Shown in pieces: positions 49,521 to 60,753 of a stretch of 64,000 bases of DNA. Made by a program: the position numbers and the translations under genes. Location: the NCBI GenBank assembly GCA_965261545.1, contig CBDHDF010000007.1:32001-96000 (forward strand), in the 5' to 3' direction. Under the pieces are notes generated by a model that was given only the letters and a program-made list of their open reading frames with translations, ran no database searches and was not told where the DNA came from. The DNA comes from Bdellovibrionales bacterium. Its GTDB lineage: Bacteria; Bdellovibrionota; Bdellovibrionia; Bdellovibrionales; UBA1609. Each line of letters opens with the position of its first letter. The stretch's first letter is position 1.

Positions 49521-49729
49521 AGTCTGGAGTAGATGCCACTGCCTTTCATAGGGTTTCATACGAATGAAAAGTTCTTCTTCAATTTGAGAGCATTCTTTTT
49601 TCAAAAAATCTATTCGATCAAGAATGCGTTGAAGAACAAAACGATTTTCTTCCGTCATCTTTCCCGACAGGGCGTAAGAAAATTCTTCGGTCTTTTGACG
49701 TAAAGACCCTCTGGCAAGAGACATCAATT

Positions 49730-51642
49730 CCCGAGTTTGACAGCAGCATCTGCGTCAAACGAATGATATTAAAGGATTAACGCATATAGTTGTATTTTGT
49801 TTATCCACACTTGTGGGCATTAAGGATTCTGGGAGGGATGGGGACGCCTGCGGCTTTAAATAAGGAGTTGGCATTGCCAGTGATATCTGTGCGGGTCCAA
49901 ATGACTTGATCACGAATTTTAACAGGGATAGCCCTAACTTCCTTGAGTTCCCTCATGGCCTCTACAACAGTTAAAGGTCGCTCTTTAACATGACCAATGC
50001 CTATGGCTGGGCTTTTTAGGTTCATCTTCTTATCTCTTAAACATTTTGTAAGGTGGGCCTCACAAAGATAAGTTAAAAAGCATAGAGTTAAATGTCCAAT
50101 AATCCTCTGGTCTGTCCAATGGAAAACAGGACGTGTTTTCAAAGTCCCTTTTAACTCACCAAAAGCATCTTCAATTTTCCACAATTCTTTGTAGTTGATA
50201 ATAATCTCATCTGCCGTCAAGTCTTTGACATTTGTAAGGACGGCAAAAAAACCATCAATTTTTTCATCTAATTCTATTTGTTCTGCATTTAATTCATGTT
50301 TTTTATTTTTGTCGTCAGCCATCTTTACATATTTCTTATAACCTTTATTGGAAACAAAAGTACTAGACTGAACACCTTTAGAAGATAGTTTTCCTTCGAT
50401 CTTTTCAAGAAGGGATTCTCTAGATTTTTTATCTCTCTCTGCTCTTTTCCTAGACCAAGTCACAATACATCTATGCCCCCCATGGTCTGTTTCGTAAACA
50501 GCAAGCTCATTCTCATATACCCAGCTAAAACGATTTAAATCATAGACCTCTTGTTTCTTTTCTTTTTTTAAAGATCCAAGCTTCATACCAACAATAAACT
50601 CGCTTTGATCCTCACTGAGTTTGTCAGTATTAGCCTTTGATAAAAGCCCCCTATCAGCCACAAAAATGAAACGGCGTACATTAAACTTTTTTCTCATTTT
50701 ATCAACAATATCTGAAAGCGTCTTGCCTTCAAAAGTATTACCAGGGAAAACCTCAAAACCTAAAGGGATGCCATCCCGATTCACCAACAAACCAAAGACA
50801 ACTTGGGTGCAGTCTGATCGTCTCTCTTTACTATAGCCAAATTGACGAAGTTTCCCTAAGTCTGTTCTTGTACTCTCGAAGCGTAAGGTTGTTAAATCAT
50901 ACAACACAATGTCTACTTGGAAATTAAATAAATCTCGCCCCACCCAATAAAGCGAGTTCTCTATTTCATCCTTATGGGAGGCAAGTAAGTCCATAGACCG
51001 ATAAATATGCTGGAGACTCAAATCACCCTTAATCATGTCTGGGTAAAAAGATTTTTGCCAATACTCAAAAACCTTTAACTTGGAACTAGGAGCAATAAAT
51101 CGGGTGGCAACTAAGGTAAAAATCACCTTACATAAATCAAATTGAACTTTCTCATGAGAATCTTTTATGTCTTTGAGGGTCTTATTGATACCCAGTTGAT
51201 CAAACAACTTTTGTAAAATCAGCAAGGGACCCAAAATGAAAGTCTCTTCGATGTAAAGCTCCTTAGCCAATTGACTCACAGTGAGAAGCTCTCGGTGGCG
51301 GGATACGGCCTGCGCCAAACTATTAATCTTATCCTCTCCTCCTTCTCCAGCCTTACCTAAGGACATGAGCATGCGTTTTTTGGATTTGCCTTTTTCTCTG
51401 TAGGACTCCACAAGGTGGTAGTAGCACTGACCTTTTGAGTTTTTAGTCGTTTGGATGTACATGAGGATATTTTCTACATATTTCTATGATATATCAATAT
51501 TTAAAACGATAAAATCCTATTTTGTTTTCTACACTTTTTTTACGTCAATTTTAATTTTTCCAGCAGCTACCATTATATTTCAGTACAACCCCAATTTCTG
51601 GAAATTTCGCATTTTAACGCAGATGCTGCTGTCAAACTCGGG
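49730..51642 (-). mobile_element. IS1634-family element, copy 1 (1913 bp)
   Basis: 26-bp IR CCCGAGTTTGACAGCAGCATCTGCGT; long direct duplication 49521-49729 = 51709-51917. Confidence 0.95.
49801..51462 (-). CDS. IS1634-family transposase
   Basis: LYDLTTLRFE, FGYSKERRSD..QV, VFPGNT.E, VADRG, YKELWKIEDAF..LK, RPVFHW. Confidence 0.95.
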   Translation of the reverse strand: MYIQTTKNSKGQCYYHLVESYREKGKSKKRMLMSLGKAGEGGEDKINSLAQAVSRHRELLTVSQLAKELYIEETFILGPLLILQKLFDQLGINKTLKDIKDSHEKVQFDLCKVIFTLVATRFIAPSSKLKVFEYWQKSFYPDMIKGDLSLQHIYRSMDLLASHKDEIENSLYWVGRDLFNFQVDIVLYDLTTLRFESTRTDLGKLRQFGYSKERRSDCTQVVFGLLVNRDGIPLGFEVFPGNTFEGKTLSDIVDKMRKKFNVRRFIFVADRGLLSKANTDKLSEDQSEFIVGMKLGSLKKEKKQEVYDLNRFSWVYENELAVYETDHGGHRCIVTWSRKRAERDKKSRESLLEKIEGKLSSKGVQSSTFVSNKGYKKYVKMADDKNKKHELNAEQIELDEKIDGFFAVLTNVKDLTADEIIINYKELWKIEDAFGELKGTLKTRPVFHWTDQRIIGHLTLCFLTYLCEAHLTKCLRDKKMNLKSPAIGIGHVKERPLTVVEAMRELKEVRAIPVKIRDQVIWTRTDITGNANSLFKAAGVPIPPRILNAHKCG

Positions 51643-53017
51643 AGACTTCACATTGCCTCCTATTTCTGCAATCAAAAGCGCTGCACTTAATTCGTCAATT
51701 CCAGGTATAGTCTGGAGTAGATGCCACTGCCTTTCATAGGGTTTCATACGAATGAAAAGTTCTTCTTCAATTTGAGAGCATTCTTTTTTCAAAAAATCTA
51801 TTCGATCAAGAATGCGTTGAAGAACAAAACGATTTTCTTCCGTCATCTTTCCCGACAGGGCGTAAGAAAATTCTTCGGTCTTTTGACGTAAAGACCCTCT
51901 GGCAAGAGACATCAATTTAGAAACTGATCTCTCTCCATTAGCTATGGCACGAATCATGGCCATACCAGATACGCAGTCAGCTTTAGACATTGCATAGGTT
52001 AAACGAATGCCTGAATATTCAAGAACCTTATACATACGATTTTGTTCCGAAGATATTTGGCGGATCGTTTTTGTACGATAACGAGCCAAAAGTCTAATAG
52101 AACGAATCTCACGTGGAGGAATGAAGCTAGCTCTTAGAAGACCACAAGCACCAAGCTCTGCAATCCACTGGCTATCCAACACGTCAGTTTTTTTACCAGT
52201 AATATTTTTGACATGAAAGGCATTGATAACATCTACTTCATAACCTTTTTCTGTCAAATCATCGTATAAAGAATTCCAATAAATCCCTGTGCTCTCAAAA
52301 AGAACTCTCTCAACCTTATGTGGCTTCATCCAAGAGCGCATTCTAGGAAAATTTTTTGGAAAATTCTTGAACTCTTTTGTGAAAAACTTCTTCTTACCGT
52401 CTTCCACTTTGACAATCGTACACATCAACATATGTTGATGAACATCTATTCCACAAACAGAACTATAAATAGTTCCTGTCCAGGGAAGAAAGTTAAGTAG
52501 TTTTAAGTATTTACATGCCTTCCCTTTAGATTTTATGCTTTAAAATGGAGTCCATCAAACATAATCCGTGTAAATTCAGTTACTTACATAAAACGGAAAA
52601 ATAAAATAAGTTCCCCCCCCTCTCTTGACGAACCTTTCACAGCCCCTCCCTTTCAGTGACTTATGTGGCTATCAACTGGTTACTTGATATGAGAGGAAGA
52701 GTTGGATCAACCTGTGTTTCCACCGTGGTGATTTCAAACCTCCTTCAGGGAAATAACATTACGTTGCGCATCAACTTCAAAAAATACTTGACGTGTTTTT
52801 TCAGAGAAATAATTTTTGATATTTTATTCTTCATTTATTTTTTATGTAGGTTTTAGGAGGCGTGGGAACCTCTCTATGAGGTAGAATTCTTATCCATGTT
52901 CTCCGAGAACCTCTCTGATTTTTTTCTTCTTAAAAGACATCCTTGCTCACTTTTTTCCCTCAAAAAAACGTATGTTAATATAAAAATTAAAGAGAAACTT
53001 TCACCAAAGGGGGGACT

Positions 53018-54382
53018 ATGCGCCATTTGAAGAAGACACAGTTGGGACTCTTTTCCCAATATCCTAACCACCAACTCAGTACAGAATTGCAGCAAATTAA
53101 TAACATCATTGATCGCCATCCAGAGTTTGCCCATATGGTTCATGAAGACCTTGTTAAAGAAAAGAAAGATTCTGGTGATATTGGTATGACATCGGAGCAA
53201 GTTCTCAAGGTGGCTATTCTTAAATCCATAAGAGGTCTTTCCTATCGTGCGTTAGCCTTTAATCTTGTCGATTCAGTATCCACCAGAGCTTTTCTGGGCC
53301 TTGAATTGGAAGAAAATTACGCTCACTCCACCTTACAGGACTTGATTGTTCAAATAAGTGAAGAAACTTGGGGAATTATTAGCGCCTCTTTAGTTTCAGA
53401 TGCAAGAGATCAAAAGATTGAGCCGTGTAAGAAAATGAGATTGGACAGTACAGTGACGAAATCAAATATTCATCATCCAACGGATGCATCGCTTTTATAT
53501 GACTGCATAAGAGTTACAGAAAGAGAATTTAAAAAAGTTCGTAAAAATGTCATGAAAGATTTTTGGCGACTTATTTCAAGAGAAGATCTTAAGAGAGCAA
53601 AAACCTTGCTTTACAAAATTAATAATTCCAAAAATGATGCGGAAAGACTACCTTGCTATAAGGAGCTTTTAAAAATCGCTACCAAATTGAACAAAGGATT
53701 ACCTGATACCATCAGAAAGATAAAAAAAGAACAAAAATGTGTGAAGATGAATGCTTTGAAAAAGAGTCTAAAACAGTTAGAAAATGTTGCCTTCTACCTG
53801 GAAAAAATCATCTTTCAAACTCAAAAAAGAGTTATTGAGGGGAAAAAAGTATCTTCTGAAAAAAAGGTCCTATCCATCTTTGAACCGCATACAGACATTA
53901 TTGTAAAGGGGCAAAGAGAAGTCGAGTTTGGGCATAAAATCTTTCTGACCTCAGGGCAAAGCAACATGATTTTAGATTGTCAGATCCCTGATGGCAACCC
54001 CGCAGACTCTGATATGTTTTTAAAAGTTATGAATTCAGTGACACAAACCTATGGGGCTTGCCCTGTAAAAGTAAGTGCAGATGGTGGGTTTGCTTCAAAA
54101 GAAAATCTTGAAGAGGCCAAAGAGATGGGGGCTAAAGATGTTTGCTTCCCAGAAAAAAAAGGAATGAAAATATTAAAGATGGTTAAAAGTGCTTGGGTCT
54201 TTAAAAATCTTCTCAATTGGAGAGCCGGAATAGAGGCTGTTATTTCATTCCTTAAGAGATGTTTTGGTATGAGAGTTGCTTACTGGAAAGGGCATGATGG
54301 TTTTAAGAGGTATGTAAAGAATGCCGTTTGTGCCTATAATTTTGTTGTCTTGGCAAGACATGAATTATCAACTGTCACCTAA
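53018..54382 (+). CDS. ISNCY/IS5-like DDE transposase
   Basis: RLDSTV..SNIHHPTDASLL, SIFEPHTDIIVKG.REVEFGHK, ADGGF, WRAGIEAVIS.LKR.FG. Confidence 0.9.
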   Translation: MRHLKKTQLGLFSQYPNHQLSTELQQINNIIDRHPEFAHMVHEDLVKEKKDSGDIGMTSEQVLKVAILKSIRGLSYRALAFNLVDSVSTRAFLGLELEENYAHSTLQDLIVQISEETWGIISASLVSDARDQKIEPCKKMRLDSTVTKSNIHHPTDASLLYDCIRVTEREFKKVRKNVMKDFWRLISREDLKRAKTLLYKINNSKNDAERLPCYKELLKIATKLNKGLPDTIRKIKKEQKCVKMNALKKSLKQLENVAFYLEKIIFQTQKRVIEGKKVSSEKKVLSIFEPHTDIIVKGQREVEFGHKIFLTSGQSNMILDCQIPDGNPADSDMFLKVMNSVTQTYGACPVKVSADGGFASKENLEEAKEMGAKDVCFPEKKGMKILKMVKSAWVFKNLLNWRAGIEAVISFLKRCFGMRVAYWKGHDGFKRYVKNAVCAYNFVVLARHELSTVT

Positions 54383-54540
54383 ATTTATCCATTAGGAATA
54401 ACAGCAATGGACCAGGTCGAAGGTGCTAAAATCTTCCAAAGGTAGGGGTGCGTCTTCAAATCGAAAAAACTAGGGCGCAAGTCGCTTAAAGACCTTTTTC
54501 CCCTTAATCTGTAGAGTTTGTGTGGCAAATCTCCAACTCT

Positions 54541-54580
54541 CACTCCCCCATTGAGGCATTGGGAGGCTCAATGGGGAGTG
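54541..54580 (+). terminator. Strong hairpin downstream of the ISNCY transposase
   Basis: CACTCCCCCATTGAG ... CTCAATGGGGAGTG. Confidence 0.5.
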
Positions 54581-54658
54581 TCAGAGAACAAAAAATGGGC
54601 CTTTCTGGACAGAAACTAAATAATATCCACATGACTCCTCCTTTCTGTTAGAAAAAAA

Positions 54659-54845
54659 GAAGGTGATAAAACTAGAGCCTTGGGATTTTGCCATAAATTC
54701 TAAAGCGAAAATAGGTCAACTTACTATACGTCCATACACTCAGAGTGCAGGTACATGCGTGGGTTCGATCCAAAGCTCAAGACCATGTTACTTCACGGAA
54801 TTAAAATTACCAATCTATTCAACGGCCACTCATCTTATCACCTTC
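54659..54845 (+). ncRNA. Candidate IS110 bridge RNA
   Basis: Perfect 11-bp closing stem GAAGGTGATAA / TTATCACCTTC; two internal-loop domains; ATGTTACTT at 54785-93 equals the element-end junction at 55038-46. Confidence 0.7.
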
Positions 54846-55147
54846 CAATAATGTTATTGCTTTATCCTTTATTGTATCGGAATCATACATGACAAAAATA
54901 CCATCAAAAGTCCAGAGTAACTAAAAGAGGCCAATTATATAGACCAGCGAAGCTGTCCACCGAGTTGCTTCGTGCAAAGAAGTGGGGGCCTAGATAAGAT
55001 TCATGGGCGTGGGTGGGGAAGCAAGGCGCCCCCATGAATGTTACTTCAAATGATAGGTAGTTTTGAGAGTAATAGCATAACTCTCTACGATAGGCTTTAT
55101 TTATCTACAGAGATTATTAAGGCCCATGCTCAAGCCAGTAACTTCTT

Positions 55148-57060
55148 CCCGAGTTTGACAGCAGCATCTGCGTCAAACGAATGATATTAAAGGATTAACG
55201 CATATAGTTGTATTTTGTTTATCCACACTTGTGGGCATTAAGGATTCTGGGAGGGATGGGGACGCCTGCGGCTTTAAATAAGGAGTTGGCATTGCCAGTG
55301 ATATCTGTGCGGGTCCAAATGACTTGATCACGAATTTTAACAGGGATAGCCCTAACTTCCTTGAGTTCCCTCATGGCCTCTACAACAGTTAAAGGTCGCT
55401 CTTTAACATGACCAATGCCTATGGCTGGGCTTTTTAGGTTCATCTTCTTATCTCTTAAACATTTTGTAAGGTGGGCCTCACAAAGATAAGTTAAAAAGCA
55501 TAGAGTTAAATGTCCAATAATCCTCTGGTCTGTCCAATGGAAAACAGGACGTGTTTTCAAAGTCCCTTTTAACTCACCAAAAGCATCTTCAATTTTCCAC
55601 AATTCTTTGTAGTTGATAATAATCTCATCTGCCGTCAAGTCTTTGACATTTGTAAGGACGGCAAAAAAACCATCAATTTTTTCATCTAATTCTATTTGTT
55701 CTGCATTTAATTCAGGTTTTTTATTTTTGTCGTCAGCCATCTTTACATATTTCTTATAACCTTTATTGGAAACAAAAGTACTAGACTGAACACCTTTAGA
55801 AGATAGTTTTCCTTCGATCTTTTCAAGAAGGGATTCTCTAGATTTTTTATCCCTCTCTGCTCTTTTCCTAGACCAAGTCACAATACATCTATGCCCCCCA
55901 TGGTCTGTTTCGTAAACAGCAAGCTCATTCTCATATACCCAGCTAAAACGATTTAAATCATAGACCTCTTGTTTCTTTTCTTTTTTTAAAGATCCAAGCT
56001 TCATACCAACAATAAACTCGCTTTGATCCTCACTGAGTTTGTCAGTATTAGCCTTTGATAAAAGCCCCCTATCAGCCACAAAAATGAAACGGCGTACATT
56101 AAACTTTTTTCTCATTTTATCAACAATATCTGAAAGCGTCTTGCCTTCAAAAGTATTACCAGGGAAAACCTCAAAACCTAAAGGGATGCCATCCCGATTC
56201 ACCAACAAACCAAAGACAACTTGGGTGCAGTCTGATCGTCTCTCTTTACTATAGCCAAATTGACGAAGTTTCCCTAAGTCTGTTCTTGTACTCTCGAAGC
56301 GTAAGGTTGTTAAATCATACAACACAATGTCTACTTGGAAATTAAATAAATCTCGCCCCACCCAATAAAGCGAGTTCTCTATTTCATCCTTATGGGAGGC
56401 AAGTAAGTCCATAGACCGATAAATATGCTGGAGACTCAAATCACCCTTAATCATGTCTGGGTAAAAAGATTTTTGCCAATACTCAAAAACCTTTAACTTG
56501 GAACTAGGAGCAATAAATCGGCTGGCAACTAAGGTAAAAATCACCTTACATAAATCAAATTGAACTTTCTCATGAGAATCTTTTATGTCTTTGAGGGTCT
56601 TATTGATACCCAGTTGATCAAACAACTTTTGTAAAATCAGCAAGGGACCCAAAATGAAAGTCTCTTCGATGTAAAGCTCCTTAGCCAATTGACTCACAGT
56701 GAGAAGCTCTCGGTGGCGGGATACGGCCTGCGCCAAACTATTAATCTTATCCTCTCCTCCTTCTCCAGCCTTACCTAAGGACATGAGCATGCGTTTTTTG
56801 GATTTGCCTTTTTCTCTGTAGGACTCCACAAGGTGGTAGTAGCACTGACCTTTTGAGTTTTTAGTCGTTTGGATGTACATGAGGATATTTTCTACATATT
56901 TCTATGATATATCAATATTTAAAACGATAAAATCCTATTTTGTTTTCTACACTTTTTTTACGTCAATTTTAATTTTTCCAGCAGCTACCATTATATTTCA
57001 GTACAACCCCAATTTCTGGAAATTTCGCATTTTAACGCAGATGCTGCTGTCAAACTCGGG
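55148..57060 (-). mobile_element. IS1634-family element, copy 2 (1913 bp)
   Basis: Same 26-bp IRs as copy 1; 145-bp TSD 55003-55147 = 57061-57205. Confidence 0.95.
55219..56880 (-). CDS. IS1634-family transposase (two aa differences from copy 1)
   Basis: VASRF vs VATRF and KKPEL vs KKHEL; otherwise appears identical. Confidence 0.95.
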   Translation of the reverse strand: MYIQTTKNSKGQCYYHLVESYREKGKSKKRMLMSLGKAGEGGEDKINSLAQAVSRHRELLTVSQLAKELYIEETFILGPLLILQKLFDQLGINKTLKDIKDSHEKVQFDLCKVIFTLVASRFIAPSSKLKVFEYWQKSFYPDMIKGDLSLQHIYRSMDLLASHKDEIENSLYWVGRDLFNFQVDIVLYDLTTLRFESTRTDLGKLRQFGYSKERRSDCTQVVFGLLVNRDGIPLGFEVFPGNTFEGKTLSDIVDKMRKKFNVRRFIFVADRGLLSKANTDKLSEDQSEFIVGMKLGSLKKEKKQEVYDLNRFSWVYENELAVYETDHGGHRCIVTWSRKRAERDKKSRESLLEKIEGKLSSKGVQSSTFVSNKGYKKYVKMADDKNKKPELNAEQIELDEKIDGFFAVLTNVKDLTADEIIINYKELWKIEDAFGELKGTLKTRPVFHWTDQRIIGHLTLCFLTYLCEAHLTKCLRDKKMNLKSPAIGIGHVKERPLTVVEAMRELKEVRAIPVKIRDQVIWTRTDITGNANSLFKAAGVPIPPRILNAHKCG

Positions 57061-57102
57061 ATGGGCGTGGGTGGGGAAGCAAGGCGCCCCCATGAATGTT
57101 AC

Positions 57103-57840
57103 TTCAAATGATAGGTAGTTTTGAGAGTAATAGCATAACTCTCTACGATAGGCTTTATTTATCTACAGAGATTATTAAGGCCCATGCTCAAGCCAGTAAC
57201 TTCTTTATTGCGCGTTGTAAGCGAGGCTCTACTTTTATCCCCATCGTAAATTTATTTAATGGCCCAGGTTGGTATTCACAAATGGTTATTGAGGGGGTGG
57301 TCATTCATCTCTATAAGTATAAAAACCCAAAGACTGGGGAGTTCTCTGTTTTGGCCACTAATCTTCCGCATGGCTCCTTGGACAAGAAGGATATGGTTGC
57401 TCTTTACTCTCGTCGTTGGGAAATAGAAACGACATTTCGTGATTTTACATCGACAATGAAAATGGAGCAGTGGCACTCAACAAGCCTTAATGGAATATTG
57501 CAAGAGCTGTATTCTTATTTTTGGCTCTTCAATTATACAAAGATTCAAATGAGCATAAATGAGGATGAAGACAGTGTGAATCAGTTGGTAAAAAATGACT
57601 ACAAAAAACCTAACTTTAAACTGATTCTTGATTTCATAATGGATAGCATCCCCCTTTTTGTTGCGGGGCTCTATCAGAAATTTAGGAAGCAGATAAAGTT
57701 GCTGATGAAGATTTCAATGGAGAAGAGGAGGCACTTCAAAAGAAGCTATGAAAGGTCTATCAAAAGGGCTGGGAGTTCTTTTAAAAGAAATAGCTTAACG
57801 CAGAGGCAGAGGGGTGTGGTGGCTTAAGGAAACGGCATTG
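57103..57840 (+). mobile_element. IS4-B copy 2, 3' half only (inverted relative to copy 1)
   Basis: Near-identical to the reverse complement of 48104-48841; ends in IR CTTAAGGAAACGGCATTG. Confidence 0.9.
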
Positions 57841-57921
57841 ACCCCTGACTGAATCTCTTTGATCGACACAGGATGCTACTCCCCGATGGGGATGCTCTCT
57901 ACCGCATCAAACTCTATTGTT

Positions 57922-60753
57922 CTATTGCCAAGGGCAATGAGACCCCACAAGACTTAGACAGGGGGTAAATGAGAATATCTCACTGGCAAGTTGTTGAATG
58001 TCCTTGGCACTTACAGAGGCCAGCTTGTCTCGGAAGTAAAAGGCTTCATCATAGGGCAAGCCATAGATTTCGTTAAAAATCATAGCTGAGGCTGTGGAAG
58101 AATTTCTTTGAAGTTCGATATCGTGTTTACCAATAAGATACTTTCTAGAGCGATCAAGCTCATTCTGAGACACCTTATTTTCAGCCAACTTAGCAAACTC
58201 TTTTTTCATCATAAGAACCGCCGTCTCTACTTTTTCGGGAGAGCAGCCTATGTATCCACCAAAATAGCCAGCATCTATACCATCAAGACGTAGAGGTGAA
58301 ACAGTATACGCCAAAGATGCCTTATCTCTCAGTTCAATAAACAGACGGCCCCCTTGCCCTGATAAAAGAGCCTGAATGACTTCCAAGGTGTAACGCCGAG
58401 GGTCTTGAAAAGTAAGACCTGGATAAATTAAGGCGAGATGAGATTGTTCTTTTGTAGACTCCATAAACAACTTCAAGGGTTTGGTGGGGTACTGATAAGA
58501 GAATTTTTCGCTGTAGGATATTCCAGAAGGATTTGCTTCAGAAGGATTCTTTCCAGAAAGATTTTCTTTAGAATTTTCCATCTGTTGCGTTGATTTCTCT
58601 TTCCACAGCTCTGTGACTTGATTCAAAGAATTGATAACGGCATCCCGGTCAACAATATCTCCCACAACGGCAATACAAAGGTCTTTGACATTTGTCGACC
58701 GATAAAAGAAACTCCTTAACTTTTCTGTGTCAAGAGCCTTCACTGTGGATTCACTCCCACAAAAATCTTTGGCATAGGGGTGTCCCTTAAATAGATGATC
58801 GTGGAGATTTCGAAAACATTCCTGGGCCGGATGGTCAGACCTTGTTTTTACCACCTCTAGCATCATGGATTTTTCTCTTTCCACAGCCTTGCCGCTAAAA
58901 AGAGGTTCCGTGAGAACCTCCCTAAAGAGGTTATACATGGGATCCCAAAAGGGTGAAAGAGTGGTCATAGAGAGGCCGACAGTGTTTCTTCCACCAAATG
59001 CATGGATATTTGAAGCCATGTGATCCATTTTAGCGTACATAGTGGTCTCATCTGTGCTTTCCGTGCCAGCGGACCAAACTCTTGACAATAGGTTTGTGAT
59101 ACCTGTTTCAGTCTCCTTTTCAGCTCTTAAGCCACCAAGAAAGGCGCACTTCATGTTGATGACGGGAGTTTCATCACTGGGTTTTAATATGAGCCTTGCC
59201 CCGGATGTTAGCGTGATTCTTTCTACATTCGACAAAGCTTTGGGAAAAGAATTTGCCTGACCTTGCTTTTGTTGTTTGCTTTTGGGTCTTGGCCACTGGA
59301 TTTTTATTTCTTCTGAATTTATCTTTGAAGAAGCTTTAGAAGCAGACTCAGAAGAAGATGTAGAAGAAATCTTTGAATTTAAAGAGGGATTTAAAGAAAG
59401 GCTCTGTTGATAGTTTTGGCGGAATTTTTTTATCCATTGTTGAGATATCTCTTTATAAGCGAGACCTTCATGATTATCAGCGATATCTTCATGGTTATGA
59501 TTGTTGTTATGACTATGGCTATCCTTGTTAGGTCCGACAAGAACAAAGTTGAGGGTTTCGGGTCTGATATATTCTTTAAAAACCCTCAATAAATCGAAAT
59601 AGGTGATCTCCTGAACCTGCCTTAAATATTTTGCATGGTACTGGTGATCGCCAAACATTTGTTGATAGAAGCCCGCCTTTCTTGCCAATCCATCCACAGT
59701 TTCCATGGAAAAGAACTCTTCGCTTTGAAGGCCAACAATGGCTTTTGCTATTTCGGACTCCGTCGGAGGGTGGGCGAGAAGACCTTTTAGCTCTTCGAGG
59801 AGAATATCTAGGGTTTCATTTATTTTTTCTTTCTTTAAAGAGACTGAAATGGAGAAAAAGCCTGGGTCCATGGCAACAAAGAGACCTGAGTGGACGTAAT
59901 TGACCAAGGGCCTTTGAATGCGAAGAGATTGAGTGAGCCGAGAACTGTCTCCCTGGGCAAGAACCATGGAGAGAACCTCTAGGGGAGGGATGTCTTTGTG
60001 TCTCACGCTGGGAATGCGCCATGCCAAGTGAAGAGTCGTCTCTTTAAACCTTGAGTCCAGGACTTCAATGCGAGACTCTTTCTGGGAAGGTTCAACTTTT
60101 CTTTGAACTCTTTTGAGTTTGTGGGGCTTCAATTCTCCAAAGTACTTCTCCACTTGGCCCTTCATGTGTTCTGAGTTAAAGTCGCCAACAACAAGCAAGG
60201 TCATATTGTGAGGCACGTATCTGGATTGAAAGTATTGAACCAGTTTTTCTCTTTGGATGTTTGTAATGACTTGCTCCTGACCGATGATAGGTTGACCATA
60301 GGGGTGGTCCTTATAAAGGGAGGCAAACAAAGATTGACTGGCGTGACGATGGGGGTCATCAAGAGTTCTTTTTATCTCTTCAAGAACCACTTCTCGCTCG
60401 CTATCGATCTCATGAGTCTCAAAGCGTGGAAACCCCATCATTTCACAAATAACCTCCAAGCCCGCTTCGATAAAATCCTTGGAAATAGTGACATAAAACA
60501 CTGTTTCATCAAAGGATGTGTAGGCATTGAGTTGTCCTCCCGCACTTTCTACAGCATTGGCAATATCGCCCACACCAAATTTTTTTGTTCCCTTAAATAC
60601 AAGGTGCTCAATAAAGTGACTGATTCCTTCCAGCCCCTCCTGCTCATCGGCACTTCCTGTTTTGACCCACATTTGAATGGAGACGACAGGAGATTTGTGA
60701 CTTTCAATGATGAGGACCGGCAGCCCATTTTTTAATTGAATTTCTTGTGTCAT
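57922..60753 (-). CDS. M16 family zinc peptidase (fused two-half form)
   Basis: GISHFIEHLVFKGT (HxxEH), NAYTSFDET, RLFIELRDKASLAY. Confidence 0.93.
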   Translation of the reverse strand: MTQEIQLKNGLPVLIIESHKSPVVSIQMWVKTGSADEQEGLEGISHFIEHLVFKGTKKFGVGDIANAVESAGGQLNAYTSFDETVFYVTISKDFIEAGLEVICEMMGFPRFETHEIDSEREVVLEEIKRTLDDPHRHASQSLFASLYKDHPYGQPIIGQEQVITNIQREKLVQYFQSRYVPHNMTLLVVGDFNSEHMKGQVEKYFGELKPHKLKRVQRKVEPSQKESRIEVLDSRFKETTLHLAWRIPSVRHKDIPPLEVLSMVLAQGDSSRLTQSLRIQRPLVNYVHSGLFVAMDPGFFSISVSLKKEKINETLDILLEELKGLLAHPPTESEIAKAIVGLQSEEFFSMETVDGLARKAGFYQQMFGDHQYHAKYLRQVQEITYFDLLRVFKEYIRPETLNFVLVGPNKDSHSHNNNHNHEDIADNHEGLAYKEISQQWIKKFRQNYQQSLSLNPSLNSKISSTSSSESASKASSKINSEEIKIQWPRPKSKQQKQGQANSFPKALSNVERITLTSGARLILKPSDETPVINMKCAFLGGLRAEKETETGITNLLSRVWSAGTESTDETTMYAKMDHMASNIHAFGGRNTVGLSMTTLSPFWDPMYNLFREVLTEPLFSGKAVEREKSMMLEVVKTRSDHPAQECFRNLHDHLFKGHPYAKDFCGSESTVKALDTEKLRSFFYRSTNVKDLCIAVVGDIVDRDAVINSLNQVTELWKEKSTQQMENSKENLSGKNPSEANPSGISYSEKFSYQYPTKPLKLFMESTKEQSHLALIYPGLTFQDPRRYTLEVIQALLSGQGGRLFIELRDKASLAYTVSPLRLDGIDAGYFGGYIGCSPEKVETAVLMMKKEFAKLAENKVSQNELDRSRKYLIGKHDIELQRNSSTASAMIFNEIYGLPYDEAFYFRDKLASVSAKDIQQLASEIFSFTPCLSLVGSHCPWQ

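Follow-up and report, generated by a model that had tools for sequence, protein, structure and literature searches.

A putative bridge RNA of an IS110-family element whose guides match the ends of an IS66-family element

A damaged IS110-family element in the window

The window is a 64,000-nucleotide stretch of a Bdellovibrionales genome (G000:C7:32001-96000) and carries a damaged copy of an IS110-family insertion sequence. The recombinase gene of this copy lies on the minus strand and starts with a GTG codon at 54630. An inserted IS cuts the gene after its first 14 nt (54617–54630); the gene resumes at 52471, and its body (51643–52471, minus strand) is cut at 51643 by copy A of an IS1634-like element, with loss of the right end of the IS110 copy. 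The inserted IS (52472–54616, plus strand) encodes a 454-aa transposase with DDE_Tnp_1 and DUF772 domains. A preliminary description of this DNA labelled it ISNCY and proposed that its removal restores an IS110 gene starting at 54630 on the minus strand, which proved correct. Excision of 52472–54616, with its 6-bp duplication, joins 54617–55044 to 51643–52471 exactly as in uninterrupted copies, where the corresponding 428-bp and 829-bp stretches meet with a 6-bp overlap, and the joined frame corresponds to an intact one of 400 aa. A BLAST search of the whole genome gave ~40 copies of these two stretches.

An intact 400-aa recombinase frame is found at L021:1501-2703. The protein matches DEDD_Tnp_IS110 (PF01548, E 2.9e-23) and Transposase_20 (PF02371, E 6.1e-13), so that a DEDD (RuvC-like) recombinase domain is combined with a C-terminal Tnp domain, as in the IS110 family. 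The window copy itself is dead, with one IS splitting its gene, another truncating it, and its right end gone. The candidate bridge RNA gene that it retains has the same sequence as in the intact copies found at other genomic locations.

The left end of the element (54997–55042, minus strand) comprises a terminal hairpin and an 8-bp subterminal repeat (54997–55004) that is inverted relative to AGATTCAT near the right end. The leader between the left end (55042) and the recombinase start (54630) measures 415 nt, ~150 nt more than the leaders of relatives, and the right end measures ~90 nt. The last 42 nt of the left end occur a second time at 57061–57102 (minus strand), within the long target duplication made by copy B of the IS1634-like element. 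The latter element (553 aa), found in the window at 49521–49729, 49730–51642, and 55003–57203, is flanked by very long target duplications: 143 bp at copy B (~55146–57061) and at least 209 bp at copy A, beyond whose truncation point a 209-bp repeat of the recombinase body lies at 49521–49729.

Two further observations concern the recombinases of this genome. The A-run that follows ...GCAGG in the recombinase copies (e.g. L021:1501-2703; L001:481-1440) occurs in three lengths: nine A in 14 copies, which leaves the 400-aa frame open, and seven A in 18 copies or eight A in three copies, both of which are frameshifted. These differences could reflect slippage, phase variation, or homopolymer assembly error. 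A second, distinct IS110-family recombinase type (PF01548, 56.5 bits) is encoded at G000:C7:469153, C11:753766, and C7:187106.

A conserved RNA structure upstream of the recombinase gene

A protein search returned thousands of relatives of the recombinase, and the closest ones with available DNA (40–48% protein identity) have leaders that can be aligned. A search of the genome contigs with the single protein gave 13 pattern matches, none of which was confirmed, and was repeated with alignment A1. Alignment A2 was built from 11 relatives (~40–45% protein identity), with the window element left out. RNAalifold predicted 49 base pairs from A2, 29 of them with compensatory changes. A covariance model built on this alignment, R1, was run over both strands of 100 sources (378,313 bases) and gave 55 matches, each immediately upstream of a recombinase gene and 28 nt from its start codon throughout. 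The window stretch is matched over the full length of the model (54656–54848, 193 nt, minus strand; 57.7 bits, E 1.5e-13). The proposal that this stretch encodes a conserved IS110 bridge RNA, with a structure kept in homologous leaders, is thereby upheld by a model from which the window element was absent.

Among 53 distinct matching sequences, 90.5% of the cells in paired columns can pair, and 43 of the 49 pairs change on both sides. The covariation score was 0.511, compared with 0.151 for shuffled alignments (0 of 500 reached the observed value) and at most 0.095 when partners were slid; these figures lean high, as the 53-sequence alignment was fitted to R1 and its rows are related. A search of Rfam with positions 51000–58000 of the window, both strands, gave no match at E values up to 1.

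In the sense orientation, the predicted RNA is closed by a long stem, P1, that encloses two modules. The 5' strand of P1 (54835–54846, minus strand) pairs with 54659–54669, which ends 28 nt before the GTG codon. The 11-bp closing stem noted previously at 54659–69/54835–45 is present as a perfect complement, and all 13 pairs of the helix change on both sides among relatives. Module A consists of P2, the loop segment A5, hairpin P3, the loop segment A3, and the return strand of P2. P2 (54781–54827, minus strand) is formed by GGCCG (54823–27) and UGGUC (54781–85) and includes two G-U pairs; four of its five pairs change on both sides, and of the 51 sequences with letters at both end positions, 36 have a G-U pair there. 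P3 (54797–54811, minus strand) shows changes on both sides in five of five pairs, and 96.6% of its cells are paired. Module B then follows as P4, B5, hairpin P5, B3, hairpin P6, and the return strand of P4, before P1 closes. P4, whose 5' strand is 54768–54778 (minus strand) and whose partner is 54675–54686, corresponds to the second stem seen previously (54675–86/54768–78); it contains one bulge and one U-G pair that reads as a C-A mismatch on the plus strand, and 10 of its 10 pairs change on both sides. In the donor-module hairpin P5 (54730–54754, minus strand; helix 6 of the model), 97.6% of the cells are paired and the end pair is U-G in 49 of 50 sequences. The window copy itself forms 36 Watson-Crick and seven G-U pairs at the 49 paired positions, with one A-C and five other combinations.

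Element ends and junctions

All ends are given in gene-sense orientation. Of 50 left ends, 42 read [variable flank]-GTAAC-ATTCATGGGGGCGCC. The right ends, 37 in number, all read ...CCCCGGAGATTCAT-AGTAA (in summary form ...GAGATTCATAGTAA), followed by C in 32 cases, G in four, and A in one. The pentamer GTAAC is therefore common to both ends, being present at 42/50 left and 32/37 right ends. Ten of the 37 right ends adjoin a left end directly, forming a tandem junction that has the same sequence as a circle junction, and two adjoin a left end after a partial right-end repeat. Fourteen, plus one variant, are followed by TATTCAGGG; the remaining ten lie elsewhere, four of them inside other IS110 copies.

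An 8-bp perfect inverted pair is formed by AGATTCAT at positions -11 to -4 of the right end and ATGAATCT at +37 to +44 of the left end. CTTTCA / TGAAAG is kept in relatives, and the left copy lies far inside the element, unlike the printed IS1111 pattern.

The genome also contains tandem arrays of the element with a period of ~1702–1858 bp (G000:C7:121000-128203 and elsewhere). In the two tandem right ends that are not direct, the left end begins after a 19–22-nt repeat of the right end. At six places within G000:C2:345416-383676, left-end fragments of ~45 nt are preceded by GGGGTGTA, not GTAAC, and these fragments recur within a larger unit. Two relatives show unusual surroundings as well. 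In L053, the DNA on the downstream side repeats the upstream flank in reverse complement, which points to either an inversion or two inverted copies at the locus. The whole of contig L023 (1966 bp) was assembled from a tandem or circular form, since a right–left junction lies upstream of its leader.

Insertion into the ends of an IS66-type element

The sequence TATTCAGGGGG occurs at 48 sites in the genome, 32 times after GTAAC, 13 times after GTATC, and three times after other bases. IS110 copies occupy 14 of the 32 GTAAC-TATTCAGGGGG sites, leaving 18 empty, versus none of the 13 GTATC-TATTCAGGGGG sites, and all 14 insertions have the same orientation. Site- and orientation-specific insertion, no target duplication, and junctions of abutted ends are all as in the IS110 family. 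The target element encodes an IS66-family transposase (PF03050, E 1.5e-49). We considered whether the two versions of the site represent separate target families; this was rejected, as the DNA behind the two common site versions comes from the two ends of one IS66-type element. The flank left of GTAAC is variable because it lies outside the IS66-family element. No inverted copy of the target end was found within 3.5 kb. IS4321 and IS5075, of the IS1111 family, reportedly insert into the terminal repeats of Tn21-family transposons, a finding said to go back to Partridge and Hall in 2003. As in that case, the fixed target here is the terminal inverted repeat of another element, entered in one orientation; unlike it, the end that is entered belongs to an IS66-family element and not to a Tn21-family transposon, and the subgroup is a different one.

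The exchange point can be narrowed further. At off-target junctions, TTAAC-ATTCATGG is paired with GTAAC-CTATGC, GTAAG is found at four right ends, and one right end joins ...GTAA to the site GAAAA-GCTC. Because these junctions reduce the bases common to both partners, and because the GTATC sites are unused, the crossover pair is most likely the AA of GTAAC, corresponding to TT at 55041–42 on the plus strand.

Several observations bear on the history of individual sites. The left end of the IS110 element (C-ATTCATGGGGGCG, window 54997–55042) resembles the IS66-type end that it targets (GTAAC-TATTCAGGGGGTG). The left flank in the window (55045–55060) begins at TTCAAATG of an IS4-type element present in ~108 copies, and the same 8 bp end the flank (G000:C7:128204 onward) of the array at G000:C7:128203. 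This fits a history in which an IS66-type element sat in the IS4-B copy with an 8-bp duplication, IS110 entered both of its ends, and a later rearrangement parted the halves by 41 kb. We had also considered the window left flank as an off-target site guided by A3, and now prefer the reading of an IS66-type element within IS4-B. On contig G000:C10 (reverse-strand 86394 and 97449), one IS110 copy lies within the B3 site of another copy's bridge RNA gene, with the left junction ...GGACGTATA-GTAAC and the right junction ...CATAGTAA-GTTGACC. At this site, then, the DNA of a donor-like guide was itself used as a target.

Loop segments matching the target and the element's own ends

The unpaired segments of the two modules were compared with the junctions. 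In module A, A5 (54812–54822, minus strand; sense UUGAAUAGAUU) is complementary to CTATTCA(G) on the gene-sense strand just to the right of GTAA. A3 (54785–54796, minus strand; sense GUGAAGUAACAU) is identical to the left junction, covering flank, GTAA, and CAU, so that beyond the flank and the shared bases it reaches the first 2–3 nt of the element. When A3 was compared with the left junction of the same element in 15 relatives, 109 of 150 positions agreed, versus a mean of 81.7 and a maximum of 98 in shuffled pairings (0 of 10000 reached 109); the count keeps two junctions mis-placed by the search pattern. The preliminary description had noted that one guide matches the element's own junction, and this is sustained, its 9-mer ATGTTACTT being the complement of A3. 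In the window, ATGTTACTT occurs only at 54785, 55038, and 57096, as described (three matches versus 0.48 expected; 2 of 100 shuffles reach three). The site at 57096, however, is not independent evidence, because copy B of the IS1634-like element made a 143-bp target duplication in which 55003–55145 is repeated at 57061–57203.

In module B, B3 (54718–54729, minus strand; sense GUAUAGUAAGUU) has the same sequence as the right end, ...AUAGUAA. In 14 relatives, its first 8 nt match the right end of the same element at 108 of 112 positions, two of 16 relatives without the right-end motif having been left out, whereas shuffled pairings averaged 88.1, with 102 as the highest value (none of 10000 reached 108). 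At least seven different right-end 8-mers are each matched by their own B3 guide. The shuffle counts for A3 and B3 overstate significance, as related sequences are not independent. B5 (54755–54767, minus strand; sense CGAACCCACGCAU) holds a motif, CGAACCCC, that is conserved in the alignments. By eye, B5 resembles positions +27 to +43 of the left end as a direct repeat, both in the window element and in relatives. A search by eye for a 5' donor guide in both senses found none, with conflicting registers among relatives. Three of the four expected guide segments, A5, A3, and B3, could thus be placed.

Since A5 matches the target, A3 the left junction, and B3 the right end, module A would bind the target and module B the donor. 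The earlier assignment was the opposite one, with the loop of ATGTTACTT and AATCTATTCAA called donor-binding; that loop appears to bind the target, and the one called loop 1 is the predicted donor-binding module. Read on the plus strand, AATCTATTCAA is complementary to the guide predicted to bind CTATTCA of the target, an IS66-family end. A5 is the variable segment of the family and, by eye, matches the right flank only in part in single-copy relatives, so that the target-loop assignment rests mainly on the insertions of this genome. It also has an extra A between the 7-nt match and UU; crossover pairing on the usual target would therefore be imperfect. With AA assumed as the core, position 6 of each handshake seems to fit the other partner in both modules.

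The same structure could be read as a 5' UTR element that governs the translation or stability of the recombinase message, or as a DNA site, with the matches to ends and target serving as protein-binding repeats. A fixed distance of 28 nt from the start codon in every relative would suit such a role, as would the direct repeat that B5, by eye, seems to form with a subterminal part of the left end. Under that explanation, however, it would be surprising that variable loop segments covary with the ends of each element and the stems covary in a way that preserves pairing, and that the layout of two modules with paired guides is the one that accounts of experimentally shown bridge RNAs and seekRNAs describe for the same protein family. 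We regard a control element or DNA site as very unlikely and think it probable that 54656–54848 on the minus strand encodes the bridge (seek) RNA of this IS110-family element, with target module A and donor module B.

The strand of the predicted RNA

The preliminary description placed the bridge RNA on the plus strand, reading divergently from the recombinase gene, with the ATGTTACTT loop as the donor-binding loop, a TT core, and a lost other end beginning TT-GAATAG. Part of the evidence does point this way. On the plus strand, the 9-mer occupies the 5' half of its loop and repeats the local junction exactly (over 11 nt, ATGTTACTTCA, in the window copy), which suits the IS621 rule that the 5' guide has the sequence of the left flank and core. 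Single-sequence folding, a weak test of strand, favored the antisense orientation in 17 of 53 sequences and the sense orientation in 35; for the window copy, the energies were -54.4 kcal/mol (sense) versus -42.7 kcal/mol (antisense).

The comparative data argue for the minus strand. Paired cells contain 265 G-U versus 55 A-C combinations (7 versus 1 in the window copy), although this count and the helix figures come from an alignment fitted to the sense model and lean towards sense. The wobble pairs at helix ends are kept in 36/51, 44/53, and 49/50 sequences, and each would be a C-A mismatch on the opposite strand. RNAalifold, run on A2 from sequence alone, gave -39.55 kcal/mol and 49 pairs for sense compared with -26.11 kcal/mol and 37 pairs for antisense. 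When the mirrored structure was evaluated on the antisense alignment, the energies were -36.3 against -37.5 kcal/mol; this result was set aside because non-pairs are not forbidden in that evaluation. That all R1 matches lie on the gene strand is likewise uninformative, because the model was built that way. Guide polarity also distinguishes the strands: the guides read towards the crossover on the sense strand only and away from it on the plus strand.

The junctions of the element copies also contradict the earlier reading, and its predicted other end is refuted. GAATAG is absent from the predicted place in all 37 right ends, each of which reads ...CCCCGGAGATTCAT-AGTAA, and is instead the complement of CTATTC in the target; CTATTCA is a conserved target sequence and no end of the element. 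The proposed TT core (55045–46) is flank, present in three of 42 left junctions, two of which are the window junction and its duplicate. Against a transcribed minus-strand RNA, a scan for sigma-70-like promoters found none on the minus strand of the leader and none on either strand across the right–left junction; the only match in the leader scan lay on the plus strand, outside the element. The four sequencing runs that contain this stretch come from one study, and none of them is recorded as RNA.

G-U pairs, alignment folding, and guide polarity together make it very probable that the RNA is encoded on the recombinase (minus) strand, and we consider a divergent plus-strand RNA extremely improbable. 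The strand appears to have been misread because the order of the guides is reversed relative to the IS621 rule and equals the order printed for IS1111 seekRNAs. The reversed order that the earlier reasoning detected is thus real, while antisense transcription as its cause does not hold.

Comparison with IS621 and IS1111 systems

The published descriptions of guide arrangement allow this order to be compared between subgroups. For IS621 and ISEc21, the match to the bottom strand (left guide) is described as lying 5' of the match to the top strand (right guide) in each loop; with "top" taken as gene-sense, the leading guide of each loop has the sequence of that strand (PMC11208160, PMC11187229). 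Each guide is drawn as running towards the crossover, with a 5' guide of 7+2 nt and a 3' guide of 4–7 nt plus core, followed by two handshake bases for the other partner (PMC11208160, PMC11208158). For the IS1111 seekRNAs of ISEc11, ISPa11, ISKpn4, and ISPst6, the complement of the top strand is printed ahead of that of the bottom strand, read 5' to 3' (Siddiquee et al. 2024, PMC11187229).

As described for IS621 (Durrant et al. 2024; Hiraizumi et al. 2024), the present system has a DEDD recombinase with a Tnp domain, a predicted RNA in the long left end that lies upstream of the gene and on its strand, a target module followed by a donor module, and in each module guides to either strand whose overlap is a 2-nt crossover, with handshake-like matches of 2–3 nt. 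The layout is that of the IS110 group, with a long left end of 415 nt, a right end of ~90 nt, and the RNA upstream of the gene. The guide order, unlike that of IS621 and ISEc21, has A5 complementary and A3 and B3 identical to the gene-sense strand. In contrast to IS621 as described, with "top" taken as gene-sense, the 5' guide here would pair with the right-hand part of the top strand, and the 3' guide with the left-hand part of the bottom strand. Further differences from the IS621 accounts are that the whole RNA is closed by one long stem, that the donor module forms a three-way junction rather than a simple internal loop, and that the protein has 400 aa.

With the same convention for the top strand, the present guides share with the described IS1111 seekRNAs the placement of the top-strand complement 5' of the bottom-strand complement. 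Multi-loop donor bases, which are described for many IS1111 members (Durrant et al. 2024), are a further likeness, and the subterminal inverted repeats (8 bp here; 7–17 bp in the IS1111 group) may be another. Unlike the IS1111 elements, described as having their non-coding region downstream in a long right end, the RNA is upstream here in 55 of 55 model matches. CazIS110-1 (bioRxiv 10.1101/2025.10.25.684509) resembles the present element in its tandem repeats, which are described there as by-products; the likeness is drawn from the published description, and the mechanism was bench-tested there and is inferred here.

Discussion

We propose that the conserved leader structure acts as an IS110-type guide RNA that would direct insertion to the termini of an IS66-family element. 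The RNA would be transcribed from the minus strand, fold into two modules closed by P1, bind the recombinase, and work as the RNAs of IS621 and IS1111 do. In the target-binding module, A5 would pair with CTATTCA(G) on the gene-sense strand of the target, and A3 with the other strand across flank-GTAA and, handshake-like, 2–3 nt into the left end. Together, A5 and A3 would specify approximately GT-AA-CTATTCA, the first bases of the IS66-family terminal repeat. Module B, a three-way junction of P4, B5, P5, B3, and P6, would bind the donor, with B3 identical to the right end plus the crossover pair, and recombination would cross at the AA of GTAAC.

The element appears to be a new member of the IS110 family, and one of its features, a reversed guide order combined with an upstream RNA, is possibly undescribed. 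Relatives with recombinases of ~400 aa and an upstream RNA, a large clade, were found in Proteobacteria, Chloroflexota, Actinomycetota, Bacillota, Acidobacteriota, and others. We offer more tentatively the idea that this clade of upstream-RNA IS110 elements with recombinases of ~400 aa uses the IS1111 guide order and a three-way donor module in which B5 corresponds to a left-end-repeat motif and not to a junction guide; such a clade, of which the present element would be a specialist for IS66 ends, might link the IS110 and IS1111 architectures, and we hold this broader reading to be doubtful.

Had the bridge RNA been antisense to its recombinase, it would have represented a new architecture; that claim fails for this element. 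Because guide order differs between subgroups, the strand of a bridge RNA cannot be called from the IS621 rule that the left guide comes first. The covariance model now covers a wide clade of IS110 leaders that is absent from Rfam. With ~40 copies in one genome, and with 14 filled and 18 empty GTAAC sites beside 13 unused GTATC sites, the element provides a natural example of which target bases matter: a single A-to-T change in the presumed crossover pair accompanies zero insertions at the 13 GTATC sites. If the broader reading is true, the recombination frame of this clade would be flipped relative to the gene in comparison with IS621. The reversed order, if indeed undescribed, would bear on the relationship between the IS110 and IS1111 layouts and on the design of guides for engineering these recombinases.
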